Source: an uncultured Pseudomonadota bacterium
GTDB taxonomy: Bacteria > Oederibacteriota > Muellerivitia > Muellerivitales > Muellerivitaceae
DNA: 64,000 nt
NCBI GenBank assembly: GCA_963836235.1
Contig: CAWIIP010000004.1
Span: 224,001-288,000 of the forward strand
Direction of reading: 5' to 3'
Shown: positions 37,643-64,000 of the stretch, one piece after another
Numbering within the stretch: the stretch's first letter is position 1
Layout: each line of letters opens with the position of its first letter
Position numbers and translations under genes: made by a program
Notes under the pieces: model-generated
Seen by the model: the letters and a program-made list of their open reading frames with translations, nothing else
What the model was told of the DNA's origin: nothing
Database searches by the model: none

Positions 37643-38377
37643 ATGAAAGTCGATCCAGCCCAGGCGGTGGGGCAAATCGCCGTCGAATTCAAGGAAGCCA
37701 TTCCTGTTTTCGAAAAATTCAACATCAATTATTATAGCGAAGGCAATAGGACTTTGCGGGAAGCCTGCTATATCGCGGGTGTGCCGATGGAGAACATCGC
37801 GGCGGCCTTGGAAGAAGTCCAGCACCGCCACCAGGAATGGTACAAGCAGGAACCGGACTGGTGGAATGAGTCCATGGCGGATTTGATCGTCTATATCGTG
37901 GGCGTCCACCACGTTTATACCCGTGGGCAACTGAACCGAATCGAGGAAATGCTGGATGCCCTGACGGCGAAGAAGGGCAAGTCGAACCCCGAGCTGATCG
38001 CCGTCCGGCGTCTTTTCCTGAAGATGGCCGAGGACTTGCGGGTCCACCTGTTGCGGGAGGAGGAAACGGTGTTCCCCTACTTGATCCAAGCCGAAAGGGC
38101 GGTACAGCGCAATGAGCCCATCCCCCGCCCCTTCACGGGTTACAACAGTTTTACCCATCCCATCCGCGCCCTGCTCTTTGAGCACGGTATGATGGACCGG
38201 GAATGGAGGGACATCGTGCAATTGACCCATCATTTCGAGCCGCCCGCCTCCCAGCGTAAAATGCTGCGCCCCCTCTATGAGGCCATGAAGGAACTGGAAA
38301 AGGACGACGAAAAGCACATCCACCTGGAAAATAATATCTTGCTCAAGAAGGCCACCCAAATGGGCCTGTTGGATTAG
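37643..38377 (+). CDS. ric: Ric/YtfE/ScdA-like hemerythrin di-iron protein
   Basis: HH.YTR, HL.REE..FP, EH, HIHLENNIL; N-terminal DUF542 with DYCCGG degenerated to NYYSEG. Confidence 0.85.
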   Translation: MKVDPAQAVGQIAVEFKEAIPVFEKFNINYYSEGNRTLREACYIAGVPMENIAAALEEVQHRHQEWYKQEPDWWNESMADLIVYIVGVHHVYTRGQLNRIEEMLDALTAKKGKSNPELIAVRRLFLKMAEDLRVHLLREEETVFPYLIQAERAVQRNEPIPRPFTGYNSFTHPIRALLFEHGMMDREWRDIVQLTHHFEPPASQRKMLRPLYEAMKELEKDDEKHIHLENNILLKKATQMGLLD

Positions 38378-38955: not shown

Positions 38956-40744
<1,789 letters not shown>

Positions 40745-40748
<4 letters not shown>

Positions 40749-41032
40749 CGCCCCCCAAGGACGTGGAAAAACTCCAGACCCAAGTCCGCAAGGATGTTTC
40801 CCGGATCAAGGGGGCCGAAAAGAACCGGCCCACCTTGCTGGCCCAAACCGCCTACCTGGGAACCTTAGGGATCGTCATCGCCCTGCCCATCGTGGCGGGG
40901 GCCTATCTAGGACATTGGCTAGATGAGAAACTTTCCGGGTTTTCCTTCAGTTGGACGGTCTGCCTGATCGTCCTGGGGGTCTTTATCGGCGCGACCAACG
41001 CCTATTTCTTCATCCGGAGGGGGGAATCATGA
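40745..41032 (+). CDS. atpQ: AtpZ/AtpQ-like protein
   Basis: LGTLGIVIALPIVAGAYLGHWLD. Confidence 0.85.
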
Positions 41033-41724
41033 TGTCCACCGGCCTCTTTCAAGGTGTTCTCATTCATATTGGGGTTTTTCAAATCACCGGAAGCCTGGTG
41101 GTGACTTGGCTGATTATGGCCGTCCTCGCGGTGGCCGCTTGGGCCATGACCCGCCGGTTGAAGGACAGCCCCGGAAGCCTCCAGGCCGCCCTTGAGGCCG
41201 TGGTGACCTTGATCGAGGACGCGATCGAGGAGGTTTTGCCCGGCAAATCCAAGCTGGTTTTTCCCTTTGTGGCCACCTTGTGGATCTTCATCGGCCTGGC
41301 CAACCTGATCGGCCTGTTGCCGGGCTTCAGTTCCCCCACCGGCGACCTTTCGGTGACCGCAAGCCTCGCCTGCCTGGTTTTCCTCTCGGTCCATTGGTTC
41401 GGCATCCGGTCGGAGGGCTGGCTGGGGTACCTGAAACACTATACGAGCCCCAGCCCCGTCCTGATTCCCTTCGAGTTGATCAGCGAGTTTTCCAGGACCT
41501 TAGCCCTGGCGGTCAGGCTTTTCGGCAACGTGATGAGCCTGCAGATGGCGGCGGCCTTGGTGCTGATGGTGGCGGGGTTCCTGGTTCCCATACCGCTCTT
41601 AATGCTTCACATCATCGAGGCTGTGATTCAAGCATACCTCTTCGGGATGCTTGCCTTGATTTACATCGCCGGGGGTATTCAATCGCAGGAACTCCGGCAT
41701 CAAAAAGAAGGAGGAAAATCATGA
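41029..41724 (+). CDS. atpB: ATPase subunit a
   Basis: SRTLALAVRLFGN, IQAYLF..L...YI. Confidence 0.95.
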   Translation: MMSTGLFQGVLIHIGVFQITGSLVVTWLIMAVLAVAAWAMTRRLKDSPGSLQAALEAVVTLIEDAIEEVLPGKSKLVFPFVATLWIFIGLANLIGLLPGFSSPTGDLSVTASLACLVFLSVHWFGIRSEGWLGYLKHYTSPSPVLIPFELISEFSRTLALAVRLFGNVMSLQMAAALVLMVAGFLVPIPLLMLHIIEAVIQAYLFGMLALIYIAGGIQSQELRHQKEGGKS

Positions 41725-41990
41725 ATGGAATGACATGGGTTGTCGTCGTCTCAACGGTGGTGGCGGGGTTTGGAATCGCCCTGGGGGCGATGTTTCCGGC
41801 CCTGGCCATGGGAAAAGCCATCAGCCAGGCGCTGGACGCCCTCTCAAGGCAGCCGGAAGCGGAAAAGTCGATCACCCGAACTTTGTTCGTGGGATTGGCC
41901 ATGATCGAGTCGCTGACCATCTATTGCCTGGTGGTGGTGCTCATCATCCTTTTCCGCAACCCCCTGCTCCAGTACCTGCTGAAGCCGTAG
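41721..41990 (+). CDS. atpE: ATPase subunit c
   Basis: RQPEA, LAMIESLTIY. Confidence 0.95.
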   Translation: MNGMTWVVVVSTVVAGFGIALGAMFPALAMGKAISQALDALSRQPEAEKSITRTLFVGLAMIESLTIYCLVVVLIILFRNPLLQYLLKP

Positions 41991-42007
41991 GAAAAGCGAG
42001 GCCCTTC

Positions 42008-42754
42008 ATGGAATTTAATTGGACGACCTTTCTCTTGGAAACGGTCAATTTCCTGGTCCTGGTTTGGATCCTGGAGCGGTTTTTTTACGCCCCGGTGAAG
42101 CGCATCATCGCCGAAAGGCGGGGCGCGATCGAGAAAAAAATCGAGGACGCCGAAAAAACCCGGACCGACGCCGATGAACTGCGCTTGAAGTACGAAAACC
42201 GCCTGAAGGACTGGGAACAGGAAAAGGCCCGTCAAAGGGAAGACTTCCAAAAGGTAATGGATGAGGAGAAGAACCGGCAAATGAAACTGTTGAAGGATTC
42301 CCTTGGAAAGGAAAAAGAAAGGGTGGAAGCCAGGGAACAAAAGCGACTTTCCGAAATTCTGGAAAAAAATGAAAGGGAAGCCGTCCGGCAGTCCTTGAAA
42401 TTCCTCTCCCGCATTTTGGAGGCTTTGGCGTGCCCGGAAATCGAGTTAAAAATGATCGAGTTCACCCTGAGAGCCATTTCCGATAAGGACTCCAAGGAAG
42501 CCGGGTTGATTCGTTCGGGTTTCGCAGGCACCGGAACCGAAGTGGCGGTCAAATCCGCTTTTGTTTTGAACGAGGATTGGAGGAACCGGCTGGCGCAAGC
42601 CTTGAAGGCGGCCTTGGGGAGGGAAGTGAAAGTGCTTTTCGCGACGGCGCCGGAGCTTCTCGCCGGGCTCGAAGTGACTTGCGGTTCGGTGGTTTTACAG
42701 GCCAACCTGCGGGACGAATTGCGGGCTTTCGAGGGGGAGAGCGGCCATGAATGA
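42008..42754 (+). CDS. atpF: ATPase subunit b with delta-like C-terminus
   Basis: [20 protein letters not shown], coiled coil, PELLAGLEV. Confidence 0.9.
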
Positions 42755-44225
42755 CCTTGCCACGTCACCCTTATCCCGCCGTTCGGAGTGGATCGAAAGG
42801 TACCGTTTCGCGCCCAGGGCCAGGGAGGTCGGAAAGGTGGTTTCGGTGGGGGACGGCATCGTTTGGATCGAAGGGCTTCCCTCGGCGGCCATTGACGAGG
42901 TGCTGGACTTGGAAACCGGCGGTCATGGTCTGGTATTCCACCTGACTGAAAAACTGGTGGGGGCTATCCTGTTCAAACAAACCGAGAATCTTACGGCTGG
43001 GACGGGGGCCCGGCACGCGGCCCAGCGGCTGAAAATCCCGGTCGGGGACGCCCTTTTGGGGCGGGTGATCGATCCTTTGGGGATGCCCTTGGACGGGAAG
43101 GCTCCTCCCCTCTGTGAAGACGAAAATGAGATCGACGTCGCGTCGCCCCCCATCACCGCGAGGGATTTCGTGAACCGGCCTCTCCTGACGGGAAACAAGA
43201 TCATCGACGCCCTCATTCCCATCGGGAAGGGCCAACGCCAGCTTTTGATCGGCGACAACGGCTTGGGAAAAAGCTCCCTCGCCATTGATGCCGTGGCCAA
43301 CCAGAAGGGCAAGAACGTCTTGTGCGTTTACGTGCTGACCGGCCAAAAGCGCTCCAGCATCTTGAATACGATCCAAATGCTCAAGGACGCGGGAGCCTTG
43401 GACAACACGGTGCTGGTCGTCGGCGAAGCCACCGCCCTCCCGGGACTGCAATATATCGCGCCCTTCGCCGGATGCGCGGTGGCCGAATATTGGATGAGGC
43501 GGGGACGCGATACCTTGATCGTTTACGACGACTTGACGGCCCATGCCGACAGCTACCGGGAACTCTCCCTCCTTTTGCGAAGGCCGCCGGGGCGGGAGGC
43601 CTATCCCGCCGATATTTTTTTCCTGCATTCGAGGCTCTTGGAGCGGTCCACCTGCCTGTCCCCGGAATTAGGCGGGGGGAGCATGACCGCCCTGCCCATC
43701 ATCGAAACCAAGGAAGGGGAAATGGCTTCTTATATTCCCACCAACCTGGTTTCCATCACGGACGGCCAGATTTATTTTGACGCTGCCCTTTTTTCAGCCG
43801 GATTTTTGCCGGCCATTGACGTCACCAAGTCCGTTTCCCGGGTGGGCGGGGCGGCCCAGCCGAATGAAATCAAACTGGAAGCCGGGCGCATGAAGCTGGA
43901 TTACCTTCAATTCCTGGAACTGGAGGTTTTCACCCGTTTTGGCGCCAAGCTGGAGGCGGGTATGCAGAAAAAAATTAACCGGGGCCGCGTGCTGAGGGAA
44001 ATCCTCAAGCAAAGCCGCCTTACCCCGGTTTCGGTGGAATGCCAGATGGGCTGGCTTGTGGCATTCAACAACGGATTGTTGGATGGTGTCAGCCCGGAGG
44101 AAATCGGGGTTCAACTGGACCGTTTATTCCAATGGGTCGGCTCCCGGGAGTTGAAGCTTTCCGACTCCCGCGAAAGGTGGAGCGAGGTCCTGGCGGGTTG
44201 GAGAGGGGAAAAGGCGCCGCCATGA
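42747..44225 (+). CDS. atpA: N-type ATPase alpha subunit
   Basis: [29 protein letters not shown]. Confidence 0.95.
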
Positions 44226-45043
44226 GCAAACTTTCCGATCTCAAGGCCCAGCTCCATACCTTGGGGGAAATCAATAGCATCTTGAACGCGATGAAAAACC
44301 TTTCCATCGTGGAAATGACCAAAATTTCACGCCTCTTGGCTACCCAAAGGAAGGTGGCGGAAAGCATCCAGGAAGCCTTGGCGGATTTTGAGTCTTTTTA
44401 CGGAACATTAGGGTCAAACCCGCCTGGGGAAGGGTTGCTTTGCGTCCTGATCGGGTCCGAGCGGGGTTTTTGCGGCGGGTTCAATGAGAAGATCGCGGCC
44501 CATTTGGAAAAGGTGGGAGCCGGTTATCTGGCCGTGCGGATTTTGACGGTGGGCCGGAAACTCGCGCTGAAGTTTGAGGGGGACCCCCGGCTGGCGGGGA
44601 CGATGGAGGGGCCCAGCGCCGCTGAGGAAATTCCCGCGACCATCTCCACCCTTTGCGACCGGTTGAAGGACTTCCCCGGCTTCCGTTGGATGATCATTCA
44701 TAATGACGGGGGTGAGGCCAATCTGAAGACCCTGGAAACCTGTCCTTTGGAAGTCAGGGGCCAGGAACCCAAGGCCCTCTTTCCTTTTCCGCCGCTTTTG
44801 AACCTGCCTTCAAATGAACTGTACCCTTTATTGCTGGAACAGCACCTTTTCGCGGTGCTCTACAGCCTCTTTTACCTTTCTTTCATGGTCGAAAACCGGG
44901 AAAGGCTTCGCCACATGGAAGGCGCGCTGGGGAAAATCGAGAAGGATTGGAATCGGATGAAATTGCGGGCGAACGCCCTCAGGCAGGAAGGCATCACCGA
45001 GGAGTTGGAGATTATCCTCTTGAGCGCGGGAGACGGGCGGTGA
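44222..45043 (+). CDS. atpG: ATPase gamma subunit
   Basis: [29 protein letters not shown]. Confidence 0.9.
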
Positions 45044-47785: not shown

Positions 47786-48502
47786 ATGAAAATCGGAAGA
47801 AAAAACTGGGGCGCAAAGCCTATATTCAAGAACCGGGAAGAAGCGGCCTATCTCCTGGCTCGGAAACTATCGCCCTACCGGAAATGGAATCCCCTGGTCT
47901 TGGCGGTGCCCCGGGGCGGCGTCCCCATGGGAAAGATCATCGCCGACGAACTTCATGGGGAATTGGACGTGGTTTTGGTCCATAAACTTCGCGCCCCAGG
48001 TGACCCGGAATACGCCATTGGAGCCGTATCCGAGGGAGGAACCCTTTACCGTCCGCCCTTTCCCCAGCATCATTGGATCCCCAAGGATTACCTGGAACGG
48101 GAAATCCAAAATGAGCTTCACGCCTTGGAACAGAGACGAAAACTTTATACACCGCATCATATGGCCCATAGTCCCGCCAACCGGATCGTCATTCTGGTGG
48201 ATGACGGCATCGCCACGGGTTCCACCTTATTGGCGGCTATGGGGGAATTGGATACTCATAAGCCGGCCAAAGTGGTGGTAGCGGCCGCGGTGGCCCCTCC
48301 AGAGGCCGTTGAGAAATTAAAGACGGAAGCGGATGAAGTGTTGATTTTGACCGTGCGTCCTGATTTTCAAACGATCGGTGAGTTTTTCAACGACTTTTCC
48401 GAGGTTCCTGACACCGAGGTCATCCGGATATTGGCGGAGGAGTCGCGTCCAAAACCGGTTTTTTCGGTGGACGCCATTCCTTTGCGAGGGAGAATTCGAT
48501 GA
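47786..48502 (+). CDS. phosphoribosyltransferase (Rv0571c/Rv2030c-like)
   Basis: LAVPRGGVP, VILVDDGIATGST. Confidence 0.9.
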   Translation: MKIGRKNWGAKPIFKNREEAAYLLARKLSPYRKWNPLVLAVPRGGVPMGKIIADELHGELDVVLVHKLRAPGDPEYAIGAVSEGGTLYRPPFPQHHWIPKDYLEREIQNELHALEQRRKLYTPHHMAHSPANRIVILVDDGIATGSTLLAAMGELDTHKPAKVVVAAAVAPPEAVEKLKTEADEVLILTVRPDFQTIGEFFNDFSEVPDTEVIRILAEESRPKPVFSVDAIPLRGRIR

Positions 48503-49170
48503 GCGAGCATTACGCCTGGGAAAAACCTTTCTTCAAAAACCGGGAGGAAGCGGCCGAGCTTCTATCCGGAAGGCTGGTGGATTACAAAGGGCAAAATCCC
48601 TTAGTATTGGCCATTCCCCGGGGAGCGGTACCGATGGGTCGGATTATTGCCGATAGCTTGGGCGGGGAATTGGACTTGGTCCTCGTTCACAAGGTGGGGT
48701 CGCCCGAAAATCCGGAATCGGCCTTGGGGGCGGTGGGGGAAAACGGGGAATTTTACGAGGCGCCCTTTGCCCGGTCCTTGGGCTTTTCGGAAGAATCGCT
48801 TCAAAAAGAAATTCGGATTCAAACCGAAGCCTTAAAACAAAAACGAAAGTTTTATCTTCCCGGCAAGCCCATTTACAAAGCGGAAGGGAGGGTGGTCATC
48901 CTGATGGATGATGGAATCGCCACGGCTTCCACCGTCATGGCCGCCATCCGGGATATTCGCCACAAAGGGCCCTTAAAGGTGGTGGTGGCCTCGCCCGTAG
49001 CGCCCCCGGAAGCCGTGAATATCATCCGCCAGGAGGCCGATGAGTTGGTGATATTGACCGTCCAAACCGATTTCGCGATGGTCAGTGAATTTTTCGAGGA
49101 CTTCCGGCAGGTAAGCGACGAGGAAGTGTTAAAAAACCTAAAAAGCGTGGCGTCCTCTATCGGAAAATAA
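48499..49170 (+). CDS. phosphoribosyltransferase paralog
   Basis: LAIPRGAVP, VILMDDGIATAST. Confidence 0.9.
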   Translation: MSEHYAWEKPFFKNREEAAELLSGRLVDYKGQNPLVLAIPRGAVPMGRIIADSLGGELDLVLVHKVGSPENPESALGAVGENGEFYEAPFARSLGFSEESLQKEIRIQTEALKQKRKFYLPGKPIYKAEGRVVILMDDGIATASTVMAAIRDIRHKGPLKVVVASPVAPPEAVNIIRQEADELVILTVQTDFAMVSEFFEDFRQVSDEEVLKNLKSVASSIGK

Positions 49171-49207
49171 AAATTTATCAACAAAACCCACTTGTTGAAA
49201 AGACCCG

Positions 49208-50332
49208 TCAATTATTCACCGATTCCCTGGCCGCGAGGATTTCAGCGGGAACATAAGAACAAAAGGGGTCGGCGCCCATCACATCCCCGGTCAAGGCGTA
49301 GGCCCTGGCTCTGGAGCCGCCGCAAAGGCGGCGGTATTCACATCTTCCGCATTTGCCATTGAGGGAGTCCGTGTCCCGCAGTTTTTGAAAGAGGGGGCTT
49401 TCCCGGTAAATCTCGTTCAGGGGCTGGTCCTTCACGTTGCCGGCGGAAAGGGGCAGGAAACCGCTGGGGCAAACATCCCCCTTGTGGGAAATAAAAACGA
49501 ACCCCCGGCCATCACCCACCCCACGGGCGGTCCTCAAGAGAACCGGATCGGGTTGAAACTTCAGGGCTTCGGGAAGCTCCCGGGGCGTTATTCCATAATT
49601 CTGGAGGATCACCCTGCGAAAATGGTGGGCCTCGGTGGTTTTGATGTCGAACCAATTCATCTTCAAGATGTCATAAAGTTGGTTCAACACCTTTTCGGTT
49701 TCCTTGGCGTTCAAGGCTTGGCTTTTTTGCGCGCGGCCCGTTGGGACCAAGAAAAAAACAGACCATAGGGCGATGGAGAAGGGAACGATGGCCCTCGAGA
49801 TATCCCAAACCTGGCCCTGGTTGTGACGGCTAATGGTGGTGTTGATTTGAAGCTGGATGCCCAGTTCCCGGATTTGGCGGGAGGCTTCCAAAAACCGGTC
49901 AAAAGTCCCGGGGACGCCCCGGAAAGCGTCAAAGGTGGCGGCGTCGGCTCCATCCAGGGAAAGGGAAATGCGGCTCAAGCCCGCGTCCCGTAATTCCTTG
50001 AGACGGTCATAAGTTAAAAGCGGAGTGATGGAGGGGGCCAAGGCGAAGTTCATCCCGCGTTTAGCGCATTCCTTGACCAGCCGGGTCAAGTCCGGCCGTT
50101 TTAAGGGGTCCCCGCCGGTCATGACGAAAAGGGGGACACCCCAGTCGGCCAACTGGCGGATCAAATCGAGGGCCTGCTTGGTATCGAGTTCACCGGGATA
50201 GATTTGGGATTGGGCTTCGGCCCGACAATGCACGCAGGCCAAATCGCAGGCCCTCGTCGCTTCCCAAATGGCGATATAGGGGCGGTCGGCGTAACGGGCG
50301 GAAGGTTTTTGTAAGGTGGAGGATTTTTCCAT
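49208..50332 (-). CDS. radical SAM/SPASM protein (AhbC/D-NirJ-like)
   Basis: WEATRACDLACVHCRA, TGGDPL, CGRCEY..CGGSRARAY..DP.C. Confidence 0.9.
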   Translation of the reverse strand: MEKSSTLQKPSARYADRPYIAIWEATRACDLACVHCRAEAQSQIYPGELDTKQALDLIRQLADWGVPLFVMTGGDPLKRPDLTRLVKECAKRGMNFALAPSITPLLTYDRLKELRDAGLSRISLSLDGADAATFDAFRGVPGTFDRFLEASRQIRELGIQLQINTTISRHNQGQVWDISRAIVPFSIALWSVFFLVPTGRAQKSQALNAKETEKVLNQLYDILKMNWFDIKTTEAHHFRRVILQNYGITPRELPEALKFQPDPVLLRTARGVGDGRGFVFISHKGDVCPSGFLPLSAGNVKDQPLNEIYRESPLFQKLRDTDSLNGKCGRCEYRRLCGGSRARAYALTGDVMGADPFCSYVPAEILAARESVNN

Positions 50333-51425: not shown

Positions 51426-51534
51426 AAGGGTTTAACGGGAATGACTGTTTAATGGGTCTTTGTTTAGGCATGGTATTTTTTGAAGGACGGCTTCCAAATG
51501 CGCATGTTCTTTTTTGAATTTCAAAGGAGTTTTA

Positions 51535-52985
51535 ATGACAGAACCAATGATCATCCAAGGCGGCATGGGAGTGGCAGTCTCCAATTGGAGACTGGCCCAG
51601 GCCGTGTCCCGAACGGGACAATTAGGCGTGGTCTCGGGGACGGCCCTCGAAAATGTCCTGGCCCGCCGGCTTCAATTGGGGGACCCGGATGATTCTCTTC
51701 GCCGTGCCCTGAGACATTTTCCAAACCCCGCCATCGCCCAAAGGATATTAGACCGTTACTTCATTCCCGGCGGAAAGGCCGAGGGGGTTGCTTTCAAGAA
51801 CTCGCCCATGTTTTCCCTGAACTCACCCCGGGAGTTGGTTGAGCTGACGGTCGCGGCCAATTTCGTCGAGGTATTCTTGGCGAAAGAAGGGCACCGGGGG
51901 CCGGTCGGTGTCAACTATCTGGAGAAAATCCAGCTTCCCACCCTGCCCTCGCTTTATGGCTCGCTTTTGGCGGGTGTGGATTATGTGCTGATGGGGGCGG
52001 GAATACCCCGATCCATTCCCGGCATTCTGGATCAGCTGGTTTTGCACCAGAAAGTATCCTTGAAGATCAATGTCCATGGCGCCGCCGCGGAGGACGATTA
52101 TCAGGCGACCTTCGATCCGAAAGACATCATTGAATCGCCCGGCGCGGTCTTGAAAAGACCCAAATTTATCGCCATCGTCTCCTCCGAAGTATTGGCCATC
52201 AACTTGGCCCGAAAATCATCCGGAAAGGTAGACGGGTTTGTCATTGAGGACCCCAGCGCTGGGGGACACAACGCTCCCCCAAGAGGGCCCCTCCATTTAA
52301 GCGACAAGGGCGAACCGCTTTACGGGCCCAAGGATAAGGTGGATTTGGAAGCCTTCCGAAAACTGGGCTTGCCTTTCTGGCTGGCCGGATCCTGCGCCGA
52401 TCCCAAAAAACTCAAGGACGCCATTTCCCAAGGCGCCACCGGTATCCAGGTAGGAACCGTATTCGCCTATTGCGAGGAATCGGGGCTTATGGACCGGATC
52501 AAACACAGAGTTTTGGCGAAAACCTTGAGGGGAAGGGAGGAAGTTTTCACCGATCCCCAGGCTTCTCCCACGGGCTTTCCCTTTAAGATTGTGCAGTTTG
52601 GAAGGAACCCTATCCGAGGAGAAAGAATATAAGGCCCGGCCAAGGGCCTGTGACCTGGGTTACCTTCGGACCGCCTTCAAGCGCAAAGACGGGACGGTGG
52701 GTTACCGCTGTCCGGGGGAACCGAAGGGAAGTTTACCTCCAAAAAGAGGGCAAGGAAGAGGATATGGATGGCCGCAAGTGCATCTGCAACGGCTTGATGG
52801 CCGGCGTCGGGCTAGGCCAAAAACAAAAGGGCGGATACCAGGAAAAGCCTTTAGTGACCTCGGGGGACGACCTTGCCCGCATCGTCACCTTCCTCAAGGG
52901 AGACAAACTTTCCTACAGCGCCCAGGATGTCATCCAATACCTATTGGGGGCTTTTACGGTGGGGTTAGGACCCGTCACCGCTTAA
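51535..52985 (+). CDS. nitronate monooxygenase-family flavoprotein, two +1 frameshifts (TTT 52597, GGG 52726; probably errors)
   Basis: IIQGGMGVAVS, AGGHNAPPRG, SPTGFPFK, then CDLGYLR..CP.EP and RKCICNGL in successive frames. Confidence 0.85.
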
Positions 52986-55818: not shown

Positions 55819-56103
55819 TTACGAATGGTGGGAAATTCTTCCGTCGGCGACCTTATGAAGCACGCTGGAAATAAAGGTTTGGTAGGGAACGCCTTCCTCC
55901 ATCGCCTTGAGCTGGATGGCCTTTAGGTCGTATTCGGAAATCCGGATGTTGATACGCTGGTTTTTCTTGAGCGTCTCCCGGGCATAAGCCTCGTATTTCC
56001 TTTTTTCCCCGGAAAGGTTTTTAACGCTCTTCAGCTCGCCGGCCTCGTAGGCCCGGAGGATTTCCTGTTCGTCCTTGGTTAACTTATCTTTCATCTTGTC
56101 CAC
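55819..56103 (-). CDS. BrnA-like/CopG antitoxin (orphaned)
   Basis: EQEIL..YE.GELKSV...RINIRIS..DL..I..KA.EEGVPYQT.ISS.LHK. Confidence 0.85.
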   Translation of the reverse strand: MDKMKDKLTKDEQEILRAYEAGELKSVKNLSGEKRKYEAYARETLKKNQRINIRISEYDLKAIQLKAMEEGVPYQTFISSVLHKVADGRISHHS

Positions 56104-56158
56104 CCCTTTTCAGGTAACGTTGTAAGGCCTTTCGGCTTGGAATGATGGTGATGAGCCT
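56083..56158 (-). pseudogene. C-terminal remnant of a BrnT-like toxin
   Basis: Translates RLITIIPSRKALQRYL, the typical toxin C-terminus; the rest is replaced by relE. Confidence 0.6.
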
Positions 56159-56165
56159 TTGGTTT

Positions 56166-56426
56166 TCACCGGTAAACTTCCCGCCGGTTGCCGATCTTAA
56201 CCACCATCACCGATTTTTCCTCATCGTTTATCGAATAGATCATCCGCCAATCGCCCTGTCGGAGCCGGTATCTTTCCTGGCCTTCCAGTTTTTCACAGCC
56301 GTGGGGCCTGGGCTGATGGGCCAAACTTTTCAGCTTTTCCACGATCTTTTGAATGTCCCGGGCCGGAATGGACCGGAGTTCTTTCTCGGCGCTTTTTTTA
56401 AGCGATACCTTATAGGAGTCCGTCAC
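56166..56426 (-). CDS. relE: RelE/ParE toxin
   Basis: AEKELRSIP, PRPHGCEKLEG..YRLRQGDWRMIY, GNRREVYR. Confidence 0.92.
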   Translation of the reverse strand: MTDSYKVSLKKSAEKELRSIPARDIQKIVEKLKSLAHQPRPHGCEKLEGQERYRLRQGDWRMIYSINDEEKSVMVVKIGNRREVYR

Positions 56427-56634
56427 GCTTAAGGTCTTTCAGGACGGATTCCAGGCTGCGGGAGGGTTCTTTGGAGCGTTTCTCAAAGGCCTCGTAGTCA
56501 GCCGCGTCTTCCCGCAGGGAAAATTTCAAAGCCTCATTCACCAGGTAAGAAAGGGTTTTTTCGGAATGGGCGGCCTTAATCTTCGCGGCCTTGAGAATTT
56601 TAGGATCCAAATAAAGGGTTGCTCTGGTATTCAT
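56410..56634 (-). CDS. RHH/CopG antitoxin
   Basis: RATLYLDP...KAA....S.LVNEAL..EDAAD; overlaps relE. Confidence 0.85.
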   Translation of the reverse strand: MNTRATLYLDPKILKAAKIKAAHSEKTLSYLVNEALKFSLREDAADYEAFEKRSKEPSRSLESVLKDLKRDGLL

Positions 56635-58542: not shown

Positions 58543-59033
58543 AAACAAAAAAGGCCGGACCCCCAAAGGAGACCGGCTTTTTGTTCCTAAACTTTAGTAC
58601 ATCAGCCGGCGCGGGTCGCGCCGTTGGAACTGGCGGAATATTGATTATTTGCCGTTTCTACGGCAATATCGCAAAAAGGAGGCAACCATGAACGCTTCAC
58701 TGAAGACCACCTTGCGCCTGGACGGGGAACTGTTAAGGCGGGCGAAAAAGTACGCCATCGAGAGGGACGAGTCGCTGGGAGAAGTGATTGAACAGTCCTT
58801 ACAACTTTTTTTAAAGCAAAAGGGGGTCATGGCAAGGCCGGGAGACTCCCATTTTTACCGCTGGGCGGAAACCTTGGCCAAGAAGAAAGGTTTTTCACAC
58901 CTTAAGGAAGCCGATGTCGTCAGGCTCGTTAGGGAAAGCCGCGAAGGGGTCAGGTAACATCTTGAGGCAAACAAAAAAGGCCGGACCCCCAACAGGGCCC
59001 GGCCTTTTCTTCTTAAACTTTAGTACATCAGCC
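58543..59033. repeat. 65-bp direct repeats (58543-58607 and 58969-59033): terminator plus last codons of cyc2
   Basis: AAACAAAAAAGGCCGGACCCCCAA....CCGGC.TTT...TAAACTTTAGTACATCAGCC in both. Confidence 0.9.
58688..58957 (+). CDS. orphan RHH antitoxin-like protein
   Basis: AGGAGG RBS; KTTLRLDGELLRRAKKYAIERDESLGEVIE. Confidence 0.75.
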   Translation: MNASLKTTLRLDGELLRRAKKYAIERDESLGEVIEQSLQLFLKQKGVMARPGDSHFYRWAETLAKKKGFSHLKEADVVRLVRESREGVR

Positions 59034-60393
59034 AAGCCACGACCGACAGGGTATTGTTGTCGGTGGCTTGATCGCCCGCCGCGTCGTAAACACCCGTCGA
59101 GCCGGAGAATTTAGTGAAGTAAATGTATTGAAGGCCCAATTTAGTGTTGTACCAGGGGACGAAATTAAGCTCGGTAATGAAACCCTGGGTATCGGGGGTG
59201 TTGGTGAGATTGCCCGCGTAAGTCATCGCGTCCGCCGAGCCGGTGGTGGAGAAATAACCCAAGCTCAGGCCGATCTTGCGGTCGTAATAATAAGTCGCGT
59301 CCAACTTGACCGCTGTCAGGGTATCGGTGGGGTTGGCGGTGGCTTGAAGGTATCCGTTGGTGTAATCCAAGGTCTGGTTCTCCCAAATGGCTGACCCCTT
59401 CAAGGTGAAGCAATTTTGCTGGCTCACGTACTGGTATTGGGCATCGATTCCAAGGTCGTTAAAGTGGTCCTGGGGCCCCACGATCGGGTTGCCATCGGGA
59501 ATGGAGTGCTCATCCAGGCCGAAAAGGCCGACTTCCACCGAGTTTTTATCAAAATCCTTGGTCAAGGCCACCCGGTAATAGGGAGTAAATCCCTGGATGG
59601 CGTTATAGCTGTTCACCGCGGCTCCGCTAAAACCCTGGGGTGCCGAACGGTAGGCGCAAATTTCAGCGTAAAGAAGCTGGTTCCAGAAAACATAGCCTCC
59701 CAAGCCGCCGACGTTGGTGCCAAGACTTTCCACCTGGGTGCTGGCAAGCGGGGTTTGGGCCGAGTGCCCGGTGAAATAGGGGAAGGACCAGGCCGGGACG
59801 GTATTGAAGACGTCTTGGACGGTCGGATTATTATTGGCGGTCAATCCGTAAACCAAGTCCGTGTTGGCCACCTGGATTCGGTCCGCGAACCTGATGTCGG
59901 TGTTATCCGCGCCCAGGGTCCCTGAGGCGGAATCGTAAGTGACCTGGACGAAGGCTCCCATTTGGGGGGAAATCCTACCCGCGTAAAAGAGGCTGAATTG
60001 GGAAGGAAATTCCAAACTGCCGCTCTTGTCCGAGGCCATATCGGCGGTCCCGGGACCACCGGCGGAAGCGGAACCGGCTAAAGCCGGATTCTTCACGAAG
60101 ACATCGGCGACCTGGAGCATGGCGGCCAGGGGCGGGGTGTTGTTGATCTCCAGACGGGTCCCGTCGGCATCCGAGGCGTCCTTCAATTCGTCGGTGTTCG
60201 TGGTGGTATAGCCGTTGAGCTTGAAGGTTCTCCCGTAGGTCGTCAATTCCGGGAAAATGGTATGGCAAGCCGAGCAGGACATTCCTGTCTGCCGGGCGAA
60301 GCTGGGAAGGGCTTGGGCTGTTGGGGCCAGTCCCGCCATACACAGGGCCATCAGGGCGGCTCCAGTCCAAATTTTTACCGATGTGATACGCAT
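59020..60393 (-). CDS. cyc2: Cyc2-type monoheme cytochrome c-porin fusion
   Basis: ALPSFARQTGMSCSACH..FPELT..GR.FKLNGY N-terminal signature followed by a beta-barrel ending in Tyr. Confidence 0.85.
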   Translation of the reverse strand: MRITSVKIWTGAALMALCMAGLAPTAQALPSFARQTGMSCSACHTIFPELTTYGRTFKLNGYTTTNTDELKDASDADGTRLEINNTPPLAAMLQVADVFVKNPALAGSASAGGPGTADMASDKSGSLEFPSQFSLFYAGRISPQMGAFVQVTYDSASGTLGADNTDIRFADRIQVANTDLVYGLTANNNPTVQDVFNTVPAWSFPYFTGHSAQTPLASTQVESLGTNVGGLGGYVFWNQLLYAEICAYRSAPQGFSGAAVNSYNAIQGFTPYYRVALTKDFDKNSVEVGLFGLDEHSIPDGNPIVGPQDHFNDLGIDAQYQYVSQQNCFTLKGSAIWENQTLDYTNGYLQATANPTDTLTAVKLDATYYYDRKIGLSLGYFSTTGSADAMTYAGNLTNTPDTQGFITELNFVPWYNTKLGLQYIYFTKFSGSTGVYDAAGDQATDNNTLSVVAWLMY

Positions 60394-60476
60394 GTCACCA
60401 CCTCCAAGGTTTTTATTCAACCGACTTTTCCGAATTACTTGTTCATTGACGCGCCACCCGCGCCCGGTCCCTGCTT

Positions 60477-61448
60477 TTAATTTCCCCAGCCCGTATGTTC
60501 CTCGAACTTCTGCTGGGAGATTAAATAAGCGATGATGGAATTCATTTGATCGAGGTCCAGGTTATCCCTCCAACTGGGCATGAAGAGCGGAGGTTCGGGC
60601 CCGTTGGGATCGGCTTTCAAGGGAGGGCTTCCGCCTTGGATGGTCTTTACGACTGATTTATAACTGGCTATTACGAGAGTGGGGTCGGATATACCTTCCG
60701 CGGTTTTAATCTGGTCTGGGTCCTGGTTTTTCTCCAACACTTTCGTGAAGGCCTCCACTTCATCCTTGTTTTGAAGATTTATTTTCGAGGCCAGGGTGTT
60801 CAAGGCCGGGACCGTGCCCCGGGCATAGTTGAAATTGGGGACCCCGCCTGCCCCTTCCACTCCGTGGCAGGTGACGCAACCACGGGTTTGAAAGAGGAAA
60901 TGGCCCTTTTGGGTGATGTCCACGAAAGAAGGCAGGGGGGAGGTCATGGACCCCATCATGCAAAGGGGCTCGTTAATAATGGGGGCGGTTTTGGTGTCGA
61001 TGTCCTTCCCGACGGCCACCAAGCCTCTCATATTCAGCATGTGGAAATGGCAGTCTCCGCAAACGGCGGTGCAGTAATAGGGATAAACCCCCTCGTTTTT
61101 CGCCTGGAAGTTCACCACTTCGGTATGACCGGGAATCAACTCGATGGGGCCGATCCCCATTTCGGGCATATAAAAGCGGTGGACGACGTCGGCGCTGCGA
61201 AGGATAAGGTGGACTTGCTCGCCCGCCTTGAGCCGGATTTCGGCGGGTTTGAAATCACCCATCCAATAGTTGAATCCCGTGACATCATCCTCGGTCCAAA
61301 TGCCTTTCGTCGCGATTCCGGTTAATACGATGGTCTTGGCGTTTTTTTGGCTCTCCATCCTTTGTTTTTGATAACCAAAGGGGATGGCGAAGGCGCCCAC
61401 CACGGCTGCCACGGCAAGGACGCTGGAGATTATTTCCCTGATTTTCAT
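60477..61448 (-). CDS. CuA-type cupredoxin-cytochrome c fusion
   Basis: DVVHRF..CTAVCGDCH (CuA-like), CVTCHG heme, MP.W axial Met. Confidence 0.85.
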   Translation of the reverse strand: MKIREIISSVLAVAAVVGAFAIPFGYQKQRMESQKNAKTIVLTGIATKGIWTEDDVTGFNYWMGDFKPAEIRLKAGEQVHLILRSADVVHRFYMPEMGIGPIELIPGHTEVVNFQAKNEGVYPYYCTAVCGDCHFHMLNMRGLVAVGKDIDTKTAPIINEPLCMMGSMTSPLPSFVDITQKGHFLFQTRGCVTCHGVEGAGGVPNFNYARGTVPALNTLASKINLQNKDEVEAFTKVLEKNQDPDQIKTAEGISDPTLVIASYKSVVKTIQGGSPPLKADPNGPEPPLFMPSWRDNLDLDQMNSIIAYLISQQKFEEHTGWGN

Positions 61449-61463
61449 TACGATCCTCCTGGT

Positions 61464-62984
61464 TCAGTTCACGTAAAGTTGGATGAATAACAAAACAATG
61501 GCGGTGTAGAAAATGGCCATGGGGGCGGCGAACCGCACCTTGGCTTTGGCGTCCTCATAAACCTTACCGGCTTGTTTGAAGGTGGATTTCAAGGTCAAAA
61601 TCAGTCCCAAGGCCATGATGGCCACCTGAATCGTGGGCATCAATTGGGGAACGATGGGGGACCAGGGAGTATGGGCCGTGTGGAAAAGATCCCAACCCCA
61701 GCCAAAGGGATCGGACATGGTGACCAGGATATAGCTGCCGTTGATGAAGATGAGCGGCAGGCTGAAGGCGATCCAGGCCAAGAGTCCCAGGGGCACCAGG
61801 GGATAGGCCATGAGAAGGAAGGATTCCTTCCAGGGCTTGGGAGGAGCCCCCGCCACCCGGCGGGCCAACCAATGGAAAGCCGAAAAGATGGTGGGGATGA
61901 TCACCATGGGAAGGGCCCATAAGCAAAGGGCATAGCCGATGAAATAGGGAAGGCCCTTGCCGCTTTCGGTGAAATTGGCCACGTCCTTGAAGAATCCCCA
62001 GGGGCCCAGGTAAATGACGCTGTAAGCCAGGGCCAGGGCCAGCATGATGAAGGCCTTCCAGGCTTCGTCGTAGCCTTTCAGTTTGGTGTCGGTGGCGAAG
62101 GGGCGCAGACGCACCGTCATGTTGTCGTGGGGACAAGACTTGATGCATTCCATGCACATGCCGCAGTAGTTGTTTCGCTCCATTTTGCTGGGGAAGTTGA
62201 ACCAGGGGCAGCCCCAGCCCCGCTCGCTGCCCACCAGACAGCTCTTGTCATGGCATTTCAGGCAAACATCCGCGTCCTTGGACCGGACCTCGACCGTTGA
62301 GGTCATGGCATAGAGGCTTAGAAAACCCGAGACCGGACAGACGTAATTGCAAAAGGCCCTCTGCCGGAAGACCACGTGCAGGATGGTGGCGACCACGATG
62401 AGGGTGCCCAATACCACCACGCTGACGATGGGCCGGGTGAGGTAAAAGGCGCTGAAGGTGCAAAGAAGCAGGAAGCTGATGTTTTGCATCCAGATGTTGG
62501 AAAGGGCTTTGGGCCAGCGCAGGTTCCAGCCGAAATAACGGTTGATGCCCACCTTGGTGCCTCGGGCGCCAGGGGTGGCCATCTTAGGGGTGGTGAGTGA
62601 CCCCCGTTGAATCCATTCCCCGAAAAAAGGAAAGGGACAGACGGTGCACCATATGCGCGAAAGGAAAGGGACCAGCGCGCTGATGAGAAGGAACCACCAG
62701 AAGATCCACACGAAAACGATGAGGATATTCCGGTTGCCGACAGGCGTGCCCCAAATCCCCGCCGCCAAAAAGACGAGGAACAAAAACAGGTTGGGCAGGA
62801 TGAGGGCGAATTGGAACCAACGTTGTTTGACCAGCCACTTGAGCGGGGGAAAGGCTTTTAACAGGTCAAATCGCCAGCCCTCCGGGGGGGGTGGAGGAGT
62901 TAAAGGCGTTGGAAGGGATCGGGAGACCTGAACAGGATTTGGGACCGGCTGGGAAATTGGATTGGGATTTATCGCTTCGCTCAT
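61464..62984 (-). CDS. NapH/MauN/NosR-like polyferredoxin membrane protein
   Basis: RIWCTVCP, FCNYVCP, CLKC...C, CGMCMECIKSCP; about 10 TM helices. Confidence 0.85.
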   Translation of the reverse strand: MSEAINPNPISQPVPNPVQVSRSLPTPLTPPPPPEGWRFDLLKAFPPLKWLVKQRWFQFALILPNLFLFLVFLAAGIWGTPVGNRNILIVFVWIFWWFLLISALVPFLSRIWCTVCPFPFFGEWIQRGSLTTPKMATPGARGTKVGINRYFGWNLRWPKALSNIWMQNISFLLLCTFSAFYLTRPIVSVVVLGTLIVVATILHVVFRQRAFCNYVCPVSGFLSLYAMTSTVEVRSKDADVCLKCHDKSCLVGSERGWGCPWFNFPSKMERNNYCGMCMECIKSCPHDNMTVRLRPFATDTKLKGYDEAWKAFIMLALALAYSVIYLGPWGFFKDVANFTESGKGLPYFIGYALCLWALPMVIIPTIFSAFHWLARRVAGAPPKPWKESFLLMAYPLVPLGLLAWIAFSLPLIFINGSYILVTMSDPFGWGWDLFHTAHTPWSPIVPQLMPTIQVAIMALGLILTLKSTFKQAGKVYEDAKAKVRFAAPMAIFYTAIVLLFIQLYVN

Positions 62985-62994
62985 GTTCTCTCTC

Positions 62995-63462
62995 CTACTT
63001 TATTTTCTTTTCCAACCAAGAAGCGTGATCGCCTTCCAAAGCGGCTAGATCCTTGAAAAGAGAGGCCAGTTCCTTGTCGTTCACGGTTTTCATCGCCTTT
63101 TCGTAAAAACTCTTCGCTCTTTTTTCCGCCTCGTAAGCCAACTGGTAAACCTGTTTGGCTTTCAAACTATCGAAAATCAGGTGCTCGGAGTCGTCCATGT
63201 CAAAGGCCTCAACCACTTCTTCCACGTCGAAATTATCGACCTCGGGAACGGGGCCCTTGAACAGCTTCTGGAATTTGGACTGGAGGAGTTCCTCGTGGCT
63301 GCTTTCTTCCTGCGACATTTCCTCGAAGTTCCGGGAAACCTCATCGTCATAACCGTCGAACATCTCCGAGAAGTTGTGCAAGGCTTTTTGGTTGGACCTT
63401 TCGATGGAGATGGCCAGGGCCAACACTTCCTTCGGGGAAAGGTCCTGTAGTTTCCTTTTCAT
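62995..63462 (-). CDS. ferritin/rubrerythrin-like protein
   Basis: ALAISIE, EESSH, AYEAE..A..FY, LEGDH. Confidence 0.85.
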   Translation of the reverse strand: MKRKLQDLSPKEVLALAISIERSNQKALHNFSEMFDGYDDEVSRNFEEMSQEESSHEELLQSKFQKLFKGPVPEVDNFDVEEVVEAFDMDDSEHLIFDSLKAKQVYQLAYEAEKRAKSFYEKAMKTVNDKELASLFKDLAALEGDHASWLEKKIK

Positions 63463-63992
63463 GGTTGGGCTCCTTGCGGAATTTGGGGCTTGGCGGAAGG
63501 CCAAACCAGGATGAACCCGGCCAACAGCAGACCCGTCATGAGCCCCAGGGCCTGGCCGAAGAGGGAATTGGGTTCCACCAGCATCACGCCCATCATGAAA
63601 GGATGCATATAGCCGCAGGTCATGGAACAGCGGTACCGGAACTTCCCACGCTTGTCGGCGGTAAAGACGATCTCGTCCGCGGGGGCAAAGGCCCAGGCTT
63701 GGGAAGGGTGACGCAATTGGATTCCGGATTTTCCGGCTTCCGCGATGGCGTCAATATCGTAACCCTCCATGTAAAAGCCGTGGGTCACGTCCCTGGAGGA
63801 AAATTTAATGTGAACCTCATCCCCCTGGTTGACCTTGATGATCGATGGATCGTAGGCGTACTTGTGGGCCAGGATGTTGAAATCACGCCTTTGGGGCTTG
63901 GGGGCTTCCGGGGTGGTGAAGGCTGGCAGGACGAATCCCGCCGCCACGACCAGCACCGCCAAAGTCCATTTACCGTTGTTTCTTGAAGCCAT
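63459..63992 (-). CDS. CuA cupredoxin (CoxB/NosZ-C-like) with two TM helices
   Basis: DVTHGF..CSMTCGYMHPFM. Confidence 0.85.
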   Translation of the reverse strand: MASRNNGKWTLAVLVVAAGFVLPAFTTPEAPKPQRRDFNILAHKYAYDPSIIKVNQGDEVHIKFSSRDVTHGFYMEGYDIDAIAEAGKSGIQLRHPSQAWAFAPADEIVFTADKRGKFRYRCSMTCGYMHPFMMGVMLVEPNSLFGQALGLMTGLLLAGFILVWPSAKPQIPQGAQP

Positions 63993-64000
63993 TTTTTCTC

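Follow-up and report, generated by a model that had tools for sequence, protein, structure and literature searches.

Five open reading frames lie co-directionally on the minus strand within 59020–63992 of the window (the whole stretch of DNA analysed, 64,000 nucleotides), and a terminator follows them:

63459..63992, minus strand: CuA1, 177 aa, a membrane-anchored CuA cupredoxin with a hydrophobic helix at its N- and C-terminus
62995..63462, minus strand: ferritin/rubrerythrin-like di-iron protein (PF02915), 155 aa, cytoplasmic; an accessory gene
61464..62984, minus strand: NapH-like protein, 506 aa, an Fe-S membrane protein of the NapH/NosH superfamily
60477..61448, minus strand: CuA2–cytochrome c fusion, 323 aa, with an N-terminal TM anchor, a CuA domain and a monoheme c domain
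59020..60393, minus strand: Cyc2-family monoheme cytochrome-porin, 457 aa
58966..59019, minus strand: intrinsic terminator hairpin closing the operon after cyc2, an inverted repeat of -31.4 kcal/mol with a U-run

The CuA1 and di-iron genes share an ATGA overlap, and a clear GGAG ribosome-binding site precedes four of the genes, that of CuA1 being cut by the window end. Since a GGAGG site precedes the ATG at 60393, this codon and not the TTG at 60420 was taken as the start of cyc2. A promoter scan of the locus gave one candidate where 2.8 would be expected by chance. The identical five genes recur in identical order at locus L001 of an FCPU426 genome, the closest relative, whose NapH-like protein is 84% identical, so that the gene order is not due to chance. 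Upstream of them L001 carries a blue-copper protein gene and then a divergent histidine kinase. An operon joining Cyc2 to two CuA proteins, a NapH-like protein and a ferritin-like protein had been proposed in a sequence-only reading of this DNA, and the ribosome-binding sites, the terminator and the order shared with L001 confirm it. The same reading had noted no heme-copper oxidase subunit I; in agreement, tblastn gave no match to oxidase subunit I or to NosZ in the window up to base 64000.

Proteins encoded at the locus

CuA sites follow the ligand pattern His ... Cys-x3-Cys-x3-His-x2-Met, and the complete set is present in both CuA1 (H71, C122, C126, H130 and M133) and CuA2 (H90, C126, C130 and H134 plus Met). 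All five CuA1 ligands are invariant in 74/74 aligned homologs; among CuA2 homologs the first His is kept in 45/45, both Cys in 44/44, the second His in 43/43 and the Met in 39/43. The copper centres are presumed to be loaded. Both proteins match cupredoxin, COX2 and NosZ C-terminal families weakly. NosZ itself is a protein of about 600 aa with a beta-propeller CuZ domain; here its C-terminal CuA region alone is matched, at 32 and 47 bits against a cut-off of 625. The C-terminal part of the CuA2 fusion matches a cytochrome c family, its monoheme domain carrying C191xxC194H195 and M290. A second heme in this protein was considered and rejected, as the CGDCH in question belongs to the CuA ligand loop; the extra Cys of that loop occurs in 18/43 homologs.

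The NapH-like protein has about nine TM helices, an additional membrane domain at its C-terminus, a Cx2CP and a Cx3CP motif (each in 117/118 alignment rows) and two [4Fe-4S] motifs of NapH/MauN type, formed by Cys 241–284. Charge bias and the complex model described below place these motifs, as we infer, on the cytoplasmic side. Cysteines 113, 116, 212, 216, 241, 249, 259, 274, 277, 280 and 284 are conserved in 115–118 of 116–118 rows, and position 244 is occupied by Cys in 75 of 118 rows and by His in the other 43. Family searches returned Fer4_5 and NapH models far below cut-off (28.1 bits against 213.05 for TIGR02163, 28.8 against 234 for NF007013), and in place of the two CX3CP motifs that mark NapH/MauN the first motif is Cx2CP. 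Of the periplasmic FMN-binding domain of NosR and RdhC there is no sign, neither as a Pfam match nor as a long outside loop. A NapG-type periplasmic polyferredoxin was found neither among the five window genes nor among recurring neighbour families. A b-heme in this protein was rejected, as no alignment column reaches 50% His; because heme ligands are absent, the trans-membrane electron route in the core is unexplained, and this counts against the explanation that we prefer below. With an AF2 model of pLDDT 92.8, Foldseek gave no match at E ≤0.001, and the matches from VIA-align were all generic helical bundles, the best at Z 9.0 over 92 residues, which is no proof of a new fold. PDB sequence searches for solved relatives returned nothing meaningful, and the ESM Atlas only hypothetical, Fer4_5 or porin clusters. 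Plasmid homologs are distant (21–26% identity), and CuA neighbours are absent from the annotation at all four plasmid loci opened of the seven with NapH-like homologs.

Multimer modelling, which the sequence-only reading had suggested as a check, predicts that CuA2 docks onto this protein, with a binding score of 0.77 against 0.00 for the best control. Runs agreed in at least 94% of contacts, and partner pLDDT was at least 81. The score mark is reached by 116/157 solved and 2/215 mismatched pairs, counts that apply only roughly here. In the model the CuA2 TM helix packs on TM1 of the NapH-like protein and the CuA2 CuA loop on CuA1. The model supports CuA2 binding.

The di-iron protein matches Rubrerythrin (PF02915, E 9e-13) and resembles the N-terminal domain of MbfA, and it lacks a hydrophobic segment. 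The MbfA iron exporter fuses this erythrin domain to a VIT1 membrane domain; the window match to NF045676 (69 bits, cut-off 450) covers model positions 1–143 of 318 only.

Window Cyc2 shows the features of Clusters 1–3 of its family: a signal peptide region, a single CxxCH, a 16-strand porin and, at 457 aa, more than the minimum of at least 365 aa. The family is defined by AXPXFAR[Q/K][T/Y] upstream of CxxCH and PXL downstream (PMC8406198), and the window protein matches both strictly. Its AF2 model has 16 long porin strands (mean pLDDT 76, heme region <50), and the top Foldseek matches are all porins (best E 5e-9); Pfam and NCBIfam gave no family match. Full-length identity to plasmid homologs is 33–40%. 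By tree (which leaves out L019) and full-length homology, its lineage includes Burkholderiales, Acidiphilium and Methylocystis homologs, groups that have been linked to Acidithiobacillus Cyc2 (PMC10654088). Window Cyc2 thus probably belongs to Cluster 2.

The conserved core and its neighbours

We surveyed the best 80 of at least 532 genome matches to the NapH-like protein, spread over many bacterial phyla and archaea. The conserved unit is a CuA protein, the NapH-like protein and a second CuA protein; Cyc2 is not part of it. A CuA motif lies upstream of the NapH-like gene in 75 loci, four of the misses being at contig starts and one an insertion fusion (L046). Downstream, the motif is strict in 65, variant in eight and not found in seven, five of those truncated. 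Fusions of CuA1 with the NapH-like protein are seen in 9/80 loci and, among 69 long representatives chosen from the best 150, in 23. On a quick NapH-like tree (from which L027, L044 and L046, being short, were omitted), Cyc2 occurs in 17/32 loci of the window's clade and in none of the 45 of clade B, which is mostly monoderm; the core is found without Cyc2 in archaea, Chloroflexota and Bacillota. The sequence-only reading of a Cyc2 conduit therefore holds insofar as a conserved electron-transfer module is joined to Cyc2, but the linkage itself is accessory (17/80). Our literature search found no description of this core, subscription papers being thinly covered; the CuA/NapH-like/CuA relay is widespread and apparently undescribed.

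Two distant Cyc2 lineages have been recruited to the module, and its 17 Cyc2 homologs comprise seven strict motif matches and ten variants. Full-length Cyc2 is always accompanied by a blue-copper gene (16/16 loci); the di-iron gene is present in only 4/17 Cyc2 loci and in 9/80 overall. Among the genomes that carry Cyc2 are Desulfoluna and one of the Desulfobacteraceae, both anaerobic sulfate reducers, which speaks for the outward flow proposed below. Elsewhere the usual neighbours of the window's Cyc2 lineage are c-type cytochrome genes (all four plasmid loci opened). Among the best 120 matches listed, only 3/13 close Cyc2 relatives on contigs >15 kb could be matched, indirectly, to a contig bearing a NapH-like match, so this lineage is often found without the module; for the three pairs, equal contig sizes (74,794, 44,301 and 82,863) support co-location.

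Heme-copper oxidases encode subunit I together with subunit II. CoxA was found in one locus of 80 (L067; tblastn with an A-family query, which distant cbb3 subunits may escape). The core adjoins NosZ in three loci, Idr-like clusters in four and type II DMSO-family enzymes in two. None of these nine shows Cyc2, an exclusion that is informative in only three loci of two lineages (uncorrected Fisher p 0.011, non-independent). The four Idr-like loci (L011, L013, L015 and L061), so called because IdrA identity rests on gene content, combine AioAB-like genes with two cytochrome c peroxidases, the composition defined for IdrABP1P2, for which Lindowbacteria and Planctomycetaceae members have been named (PMC8692401). 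The DMSO-family neighbours could be oxidases, because their scores fall below every cut-off.

A GltD/NfnB-like FAD–NAD(P)H domain is inserted at the first ferredoxin Cys in 22/23 longer homologs and also in L046; homolog P0261 is fused to a DMSO-reductase heme-b subunit and CuA. The inserts are akin to the Fe-S flavoproteins of GltD/NfnB/DsrL type, which are absent from the window copy and its neighbourhood; neither the window nor L001 has a GltD-like or terminal-reductase gene nearby. At L004, L005 and L008, the GltD-like gene is followed by a Rieske/cytochrome b cluster, of which it may be a part.

Direction of electron flow

We propose that CuA1, the NapH-like protein and CuA2 would form a three-subunit inner-membrane redox complex, modelled with its Fe-S centres toward the cytoplasm and its two CuA centres side by side outside. 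It may act like NapGH or NosGH with copper centres in place of NapG, taking electrons from quinol and/or cytoplasmic NAD(P)H or ferredoxin and passing them to high-potential carriers. In the window organism these would run from CuA1/CuA2 through the fused cytochrome c to a soluble blue-copper protein, whose gene is expected just past base 64000, and on to Cyc2. Cyc2 would then reduce an extracellular or pore-bound oxidant, for example chelated Fe(III) or Cu(II), and so serve respiration, the acquisition of metal or detoxification. We give this outward conduit an even chance of being correct.

CuA centres lie at about +250 mV, menaquinone at about -74 mV and NAD(P)H at about -320 mV. Because the CuA potential lies above the other two, outward flow would be downhill. 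NapH and NosH pass menaquinol electrons to periplasmic reductases (PMC5928378, PMC13685413). The module shares with NapGH/NosGH, and with NosR and RdhC, a membrane protein that carries two [4Fe-4S] motifs and, on the cytoplasmic side, two Cys-Pro motifs, an outside redox partner and adjacent periplasmic reductases (PMC5928378). It differs in the length, helix number and first motif of the membrane protein, and in having two CuA proteins as partners instead of NapG or an FMN domain. Besides the quinone link read into it earlier, the NapH-like protein may have one to cytoplasmic NAD(P)H.

The opposite direction, which we regard as unlikely, would make the locus an Fe(II)-oxidation conduit. Electrons would enter through Cyc2, pass blue copper, cytochrome c and CuA to the membrane protein, and end either on quinone, an uphill step, or, downhill, on the cytoplasmic di-iron protein, which would reduce O2/H2O2. 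The position that CoxA has in the rus operon would fall to the NapH-like protein. The family features of Cyc2 and its constant blue-copper neighbour fit this, and the parts list parallels the Acidithiobacillus cyc2-cyc1-cup-coxB-coxA-rus arrangement (PMC10654088), the rus operon (Cyc2-Cyc1-Cup-CoxBACD-Rus) having Cyc2, a c-type cytochrome, CuA and, as in module relatives, a blue-copper shuttle. Fe(II) oxidation is the activity of all three members of the Cyc2 family that have been tested biochemically (PMC8406198, PMC13741234), and no reductive Cyc2 was found in the literature consulted. Here the operon includes the di-iron gene, which most Cyc2 loci lack. The module differs from the rus operon in having no CoxA, CoxC or CoxD and in its two CuA proteins, which are predicted to dock on an Fe-S membrane protein. 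Against inward flow, oxidase subunit I is absent from 79/80 loci and the window, the core does without Cyc2 in 45/45 clade-B loci, the step from CuA to quinone would be uphill, and the NAD(P)H-domain insertions match outward flow. Context and fusions thus favour outward (reductive) flow over metal oxidation: a non-oxidase module joined to Cyc2 survives from the metal-oxidation conduit first envisaged, whereas its oxidative direction is disfavoured.

It is also improbable, in our judgement, that the locus serves copper or metal homeostasis instead of respiration. On this reading the Fe-S protein would reduce metal as CcoG does, and Cyc2 and the cupredoxins would manage the redox state and transfer of copper that is to be taken up, loaded into enzymes or detoxified. 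CcoG, a cupric reductase (PMC8475189), is like the NapH-like protein a ferredoxin-like membrane protein with a link to copper genes. Neighbouring genes encode PCYCGC (28 of 80 loci), P1B ATPase (10), YtkA (4), NosL (3) and SCO (2) proteins, copper-handling genes predominate around the Chloroflexota loci, and some distant members of the family carry a fused NosL, YHS, HMBD or YtkA domain. However, SCO, TlpA, NosL and ATPases are also tools for building CuA sites, and the module is equipped for electron transfer, with complete CuA ligand sets, a fused cytochrome c and Cyc2; the Idr-like and DMSO-family neighbours are copper-free. CcoG is marked by a C-terminal Ig-like domain and a cbb3 gene context, whereas Pfam gives Fer4_5 only, without the CcoG C-terminal domain, and the module has CuA partners and no recognised cbb3 oxidase genes nearby.

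More speculatively, the core could be a heme-free, copper-based alternative to Rieske/cytochrome b, splitting the two electrons of quinol between outside CuA at high potential and cytoplasmic Fe-S/flavin toward NAD(P)H, or the reverse, with NosZ, Idr, DMSO-family enzymes and, as extracellular terminal, Cyc2 as interchangeable end modules. We think this a long shot, but it fits the potentials, because menaquinone falls close to the average of CuA and NAD(P)H. Very improbable is a role in reporting the periplasmic or extracellular redox state to an adjacent two-component system: histidine-kinase families occur in 36 and response-regulator families in 41 of 81 clustered stretches (80 loci and the window end), and distant relatives carry the name of cyclic-nucleotide-binding proteins, but the window proteins have no signalling domain, and fusions to catalytic flavoprotein and heme-b domains indicate electron flux. 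That an ordinary oxidase or nos cluster starts past base 64000 and ends in this locus, an arrangement which the sequence-only reading named as a refutation and to which the three nosZ-adjoining loci lend some colour, was rejected as barely credible, since L001 has a blue-copper gene and a divergent kinase in that place, CoxA and NosZ are rare (1/80 and 3/80), and the sole CoxA, at L067, lies several kb off behind a two-component system.

Implications for the core and for Cyc2

The two CuA centres of the core belong to neither an oxidase nor NosZ, and for its membrane subunit PDB, Foldseek and VIA-align searches found no solved structural relative. Some clade II NosZ, iodate-reductase-like and DMSO-family enzymes may find in the core the membrane electron donor that has been missing for them. 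If quinol splitting were true, the core would be a new respiratory complex, with Cyc2 as an interface that is reductive or works in both directions.

In genomes of uncultured microbes, cyc2 serves as a marker of iron oxidation, and the marker's authors flag Clusters 2 and 3 as unverified (PMC8406198). The module defines a set of cyc2 genes from two distant lineages whose partners suggest different wiring, possibly in the opposite direction. One carrier, at L014, is a cultured strain, Desulfoluna limicola ASN36, so the question can be tested. As electrons more likely flow outward than inward, module-linked Cyc2 genes may not mark iron oxidisers.

A five-gene operon in the window

The sequence-only reading placed Cyc2 in an operon with two CuA proteins, a NapH-like protein and a ferritin-like protein, and this operon is real. 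At 59020–63992, it comprises five co-directional ORFs:

63992–63459, minus strand, CuA1 cupredoxin
63462–62995, minus strand, rubrerythrin/ferritin-like gene
62984–61464, minus strand, NapH-like Fe-S membrane protein
61448–60477, minus strand, CuA–cytochrome c fusion (CuA2)
60393–59020, minus strand, Cyc2

Intergenic gaps measure 0–83 nt, GGAG sites precede four of the five starts (the site of the fifth is cut off by the window end) and a strong hairpin with a U-run directly follows cyc2. As that reading also held, oxidase subunit I is absent: tblastn gave no match to it, to NosZ or to a GltD-like gene anywhere in the 64-kb window. Past cyc2 lie unrelated small DUF6364 and toxin–antitoxin genes and a ParB-like ORF. 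The small DUF6364 gene (58649–58957) is flanked by a 65-nt direct repeat (89%; 58543–58607 and 58969–59033) consisting of the last cyc2 codons and terminator, and has the look of a small insertion that duplicated its target. A CopG-type antitoxin, a ParE toxin and a second DUF6364 gene occupy 55819–56634.

Elsewhere in the window, a low-GC segment (1688–21848) encoding an HNH nuclease, a type IIG-like restriction-methylase, TrbL/VirB6, a TraG/VirB4-like ATPase, a GGDEF protein and an integrase is a probable integrative conjugative element. The F-type ATP synthase operon (38977–45043) has an alternative order (beta first, then a, c, b/delta, alpha, gamma), which we take to resemble the N-type ATPase arrangement, and adjoins a ScdA/hemerythrin gene (37643–38377). 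Two tandem phosphoribosyltransferase-like genes with a TIGR04053 radical SAM protein above cut-off (47786–50332), together with a Crp/Fnr regulator (32791–33489), possibly form a low-oxygen response region. The PEP synthase gene (23375–25793) seems divided between two overlapping frames (PPDK_N positions 2–228 and 228–318), likely by a frameshift or sequencing error, and a nitronate monooxygenase-like gene (51514–52985) apparently continues in a second frame (52650–52985), a possible frameshift.

The conserved core and its modelled architecture

Both window cupredoxins carry the full set of what we take to be the CuA ligands. In alignments, all five ligands of CuA1 are invariant (74/74 homologs), as are two His and two Cys of CuA2, with Met in 39/43. 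CGDCH of CuA2 was rejected as a heme site, being part of the CuA loop; the real site is C191–H195, with M290.

The NapH-like protein gave a confident model (pLDDT 92.8) with about nine predicted transmembrane helices; its Cx2CP and Cx3CP motifs and two [4Fe-4S] motifs are all placed on the positively charged, presumably cytoplasmic side. No conserved His that might ligate heme b was present in the aligned homologs. At position 244 of the 118-row alignment A3, a [4Fe-4S] ligand, Cys occurs in 75 rows and His in 43, a swap that may tune the cluster potential. The protein scores far under NapH cut-offs, and a search for solved structural relatives found none. Its family is large: 2091 of 8000 scored candidates matched, and 648 representatives reach E ≤ 1e-30.

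A synteny survey and multimer modelling had been set as checks, and both uphold the core, the latter at the level of prediction. A single genome scan returned at least 532 relatives, of which we examined the best 80. Of these 80 loci, 75 have a strict CuA motif in the 2 kb upstream; the exceptions are four loci at contig starts and L046, an insertion fusion. In the 3 kb downstream, 65 of the best 80 have a strict motif and 8 a variant one; none was found in the other 7, five of them truncated. Hosts of the best 80 span Acidobacteriota, Planctomycetota, Fidelibacterota, Bacteroidota, Thermodesulfobacteriota, Gemmatimonadota, Chloroflexota, Bacillota and archaea. Proteins of a Dehalococcoidia bin (L052) and an Acidobacteriota bin (L055) are near-identical, probably through a misbinned contig. 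A single ORF joins CuA1 to the membrane protein in nine of the best 80 loci.

In a three-chain model, the CuA2 binding score was 0.77, against 0.00 for the best of three controls; runs agreed in at least 94% of contacts, with partner pLDDT of at least 81. In calibration, which applies only roughly to the present complex, 116/157 solved and 2/215 mismatched pairs passed. The prediction supports CuA2 binding. Its anchor is predicted to pack against TM1 and its CuA domain to rest on conserved outside loops (74–86, 184–189 and 425–438), with the CuA1 and CuA2 ligand loops in modelled contact.

Cyc2 and its linkage to the core

The window Cyc2 agrees with the sequence criteria published in excerpts of PMC8406198. 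It is modelled as a 16-strand porin; confidence in the heme region is low. Its full-length relatives include plasmid proteins of Burkholderiales, Methylocystis and Acidiphilium which, set against the groups in excerpts of PMC10654088, suggest that it may belong to Cluster 2.

A quick tree covering the window and 77 loci (3 short rows omitted) separates two clades, each with SH-aLRT of 88: clade A (32 loci from diderm phyla, window included) and clade B (45 loci, the majority from Chloroflexota, Bacillota and archaea). Cyc2 accompanies the core at 17/32 clade-A loci (16 full-length, one cut by a contig end) and at 0/45 clade-B loci. The copies belong to two distant Cyc2 lineages. ARKY-type Cyc2 sits upstream of the core in fifteen loci, and a truncated copy lies downstream in L019. 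The window and its closest relative among the best 80 of at least 532 (L001, candidate division FCPU426, NapH-like protein 84% identical) have ARQT-type Cyc2 downstream; this type shares only the heme region with ARKY-type and groups with proteobacterial homologs in a Cyc2 tree. The match to L001 suggests that the window comes from a related host. That the core has recruited Cyc2 from two lineages, and at two positions, speaks for a functional link between them. Against an obligatory link, Cyc2 is found in 17 and missing from 6 of the 23 clade-A loci with at least 3 kb visible upstream, and only 3/13 close Cyc2 relatives on long contigs sit on a contig of the same length as that of a top NapH-like match, an indirect measure.

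Every one of the 16 loci with full-length Cyc2 also has a gene for a secreted protein bearing a His...Cys-x2-His-x2-Met type-1 copper pattern. Since this gene lies directly upstream of CuA1 in L001, we predict one past base 64000 of the window.

Proposed direction of electron flow

The sequence-only reading proposed a possible outer-membrane-to-quinone conduit for metal oxidation or metal uptake. We favour the opposite direction, and give an even chance to a three-subunit CuA/Fe-S/CuA complex that would export electrons outward to high-potential carriers, the path in the window organism ending at Cyc2 acting on an extracellular oxidant. Fusions, reductase neighbours and redox potentials point this way. 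With the usual potentials, electrons would run downhill when passing from quinol or NAD(P)H to CuA, and uphill in the opposite sense. A GltD/NfnB-like FAD-NAD(P)H domain is inserted at the first ferredoxin Cys in 22 of 23 homologs longer than 886 aa, two of the 22 being also fused to CuA1; in the remaining homolog the fusion partners are a DMSO-reductase heme-b subunit and CuA1. Six further loci have a separate GltD-like gene downstream, which in three may belong to the following Rieske/cytochrome b cluster.

The core adjoins clade II NosZ in 3/80 loci, putative type II DMSO-family enzymes in 2/80, and AioAB-like genes with two peroxidases, the idrABP1P2 pattern, in 4/80. Excerpts of PMC8692401 name idrABP1P2 members in Lindowbacteria and Planctomycetaceae. 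Cyc2 was seen in none of these nine loci, an exclusion informative in only 3 loci of 2 lineages (p 0.011, not independent). The core would work like NapGH/NosGH, NapH and NosH passing electrons from menaquinol to periplasmic reductases according to excerpts of PMC5928378 and PMC13685413. Cyc2 potentials of 208 mV, and of 560 mV at pH 4.8 (excerpts of PMC13741234), do not forbid outward flow.

Inward Fe(II) oxidation, possibly ending at the cytoplasmic di-iron protein, is an unlikely alternative. In its favour, every tested Cyc2 protein is an oxidase and the operon resembles the rus operon; a di-iron gene occurs in only 4/17 Cyc2 loci among the best 80 of at least 532. Copper handling, which we judge equally improbable, draws on neighbours in the best 80 of at least 532 loci (PCYCGC 28, P1B ATPase 10, YtkA 4, NosL 3, SCO 2), on NosL/YHS/HMBD fusions in the family and on the precedent of CcoG (excerpts of PMC8475189). 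Redox sensing appears very unlikely. That the genes are the tail of a standard cluster is hardly credible; oxidase subunit I occurs in 1/80 loci (best 80 of at least 532).

Other family members show further associations. L004 (12728–19520), L005 and L008 carry, after the module, a GltD-like flavoprotein, a Rieske protein, a split cytochrome b6 and 8-heme and monoheme cytochromes, an arrangement that we take to resemble the Rieske/cytochrome b complexes of anammox type that include an NAD(P) subunit. Five loci (L009, L014, L029, L034, L051) have MacB/FtsX permease and FtrD-like (PF10080) genes downstream, with NosL genes in three, hinting at a possible link to metal import or export. Family fusions with thioredoxin-like plus CuA, monoheme or c554-like cytochrome domains include P0271, P0278, P0337, P0372, P0385 and P0404; P0278 unites thioredoxin-like, CuA, membrane Fe-S and NAD(P)H flavoprotein domains.

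The module falls outside NapH, NosR/RdhC, CcoG, heme-copper oxidases and NosZ, and, compared by descriptions, differs in composition from the Sideroxydans and Tenderia cupredoxin clusters. The open literature, to which our search was confined, yielded no description of it. We conclude that the module is real and belongs with the NapH-type systems, possibly in a categorically new bioenergetic role.
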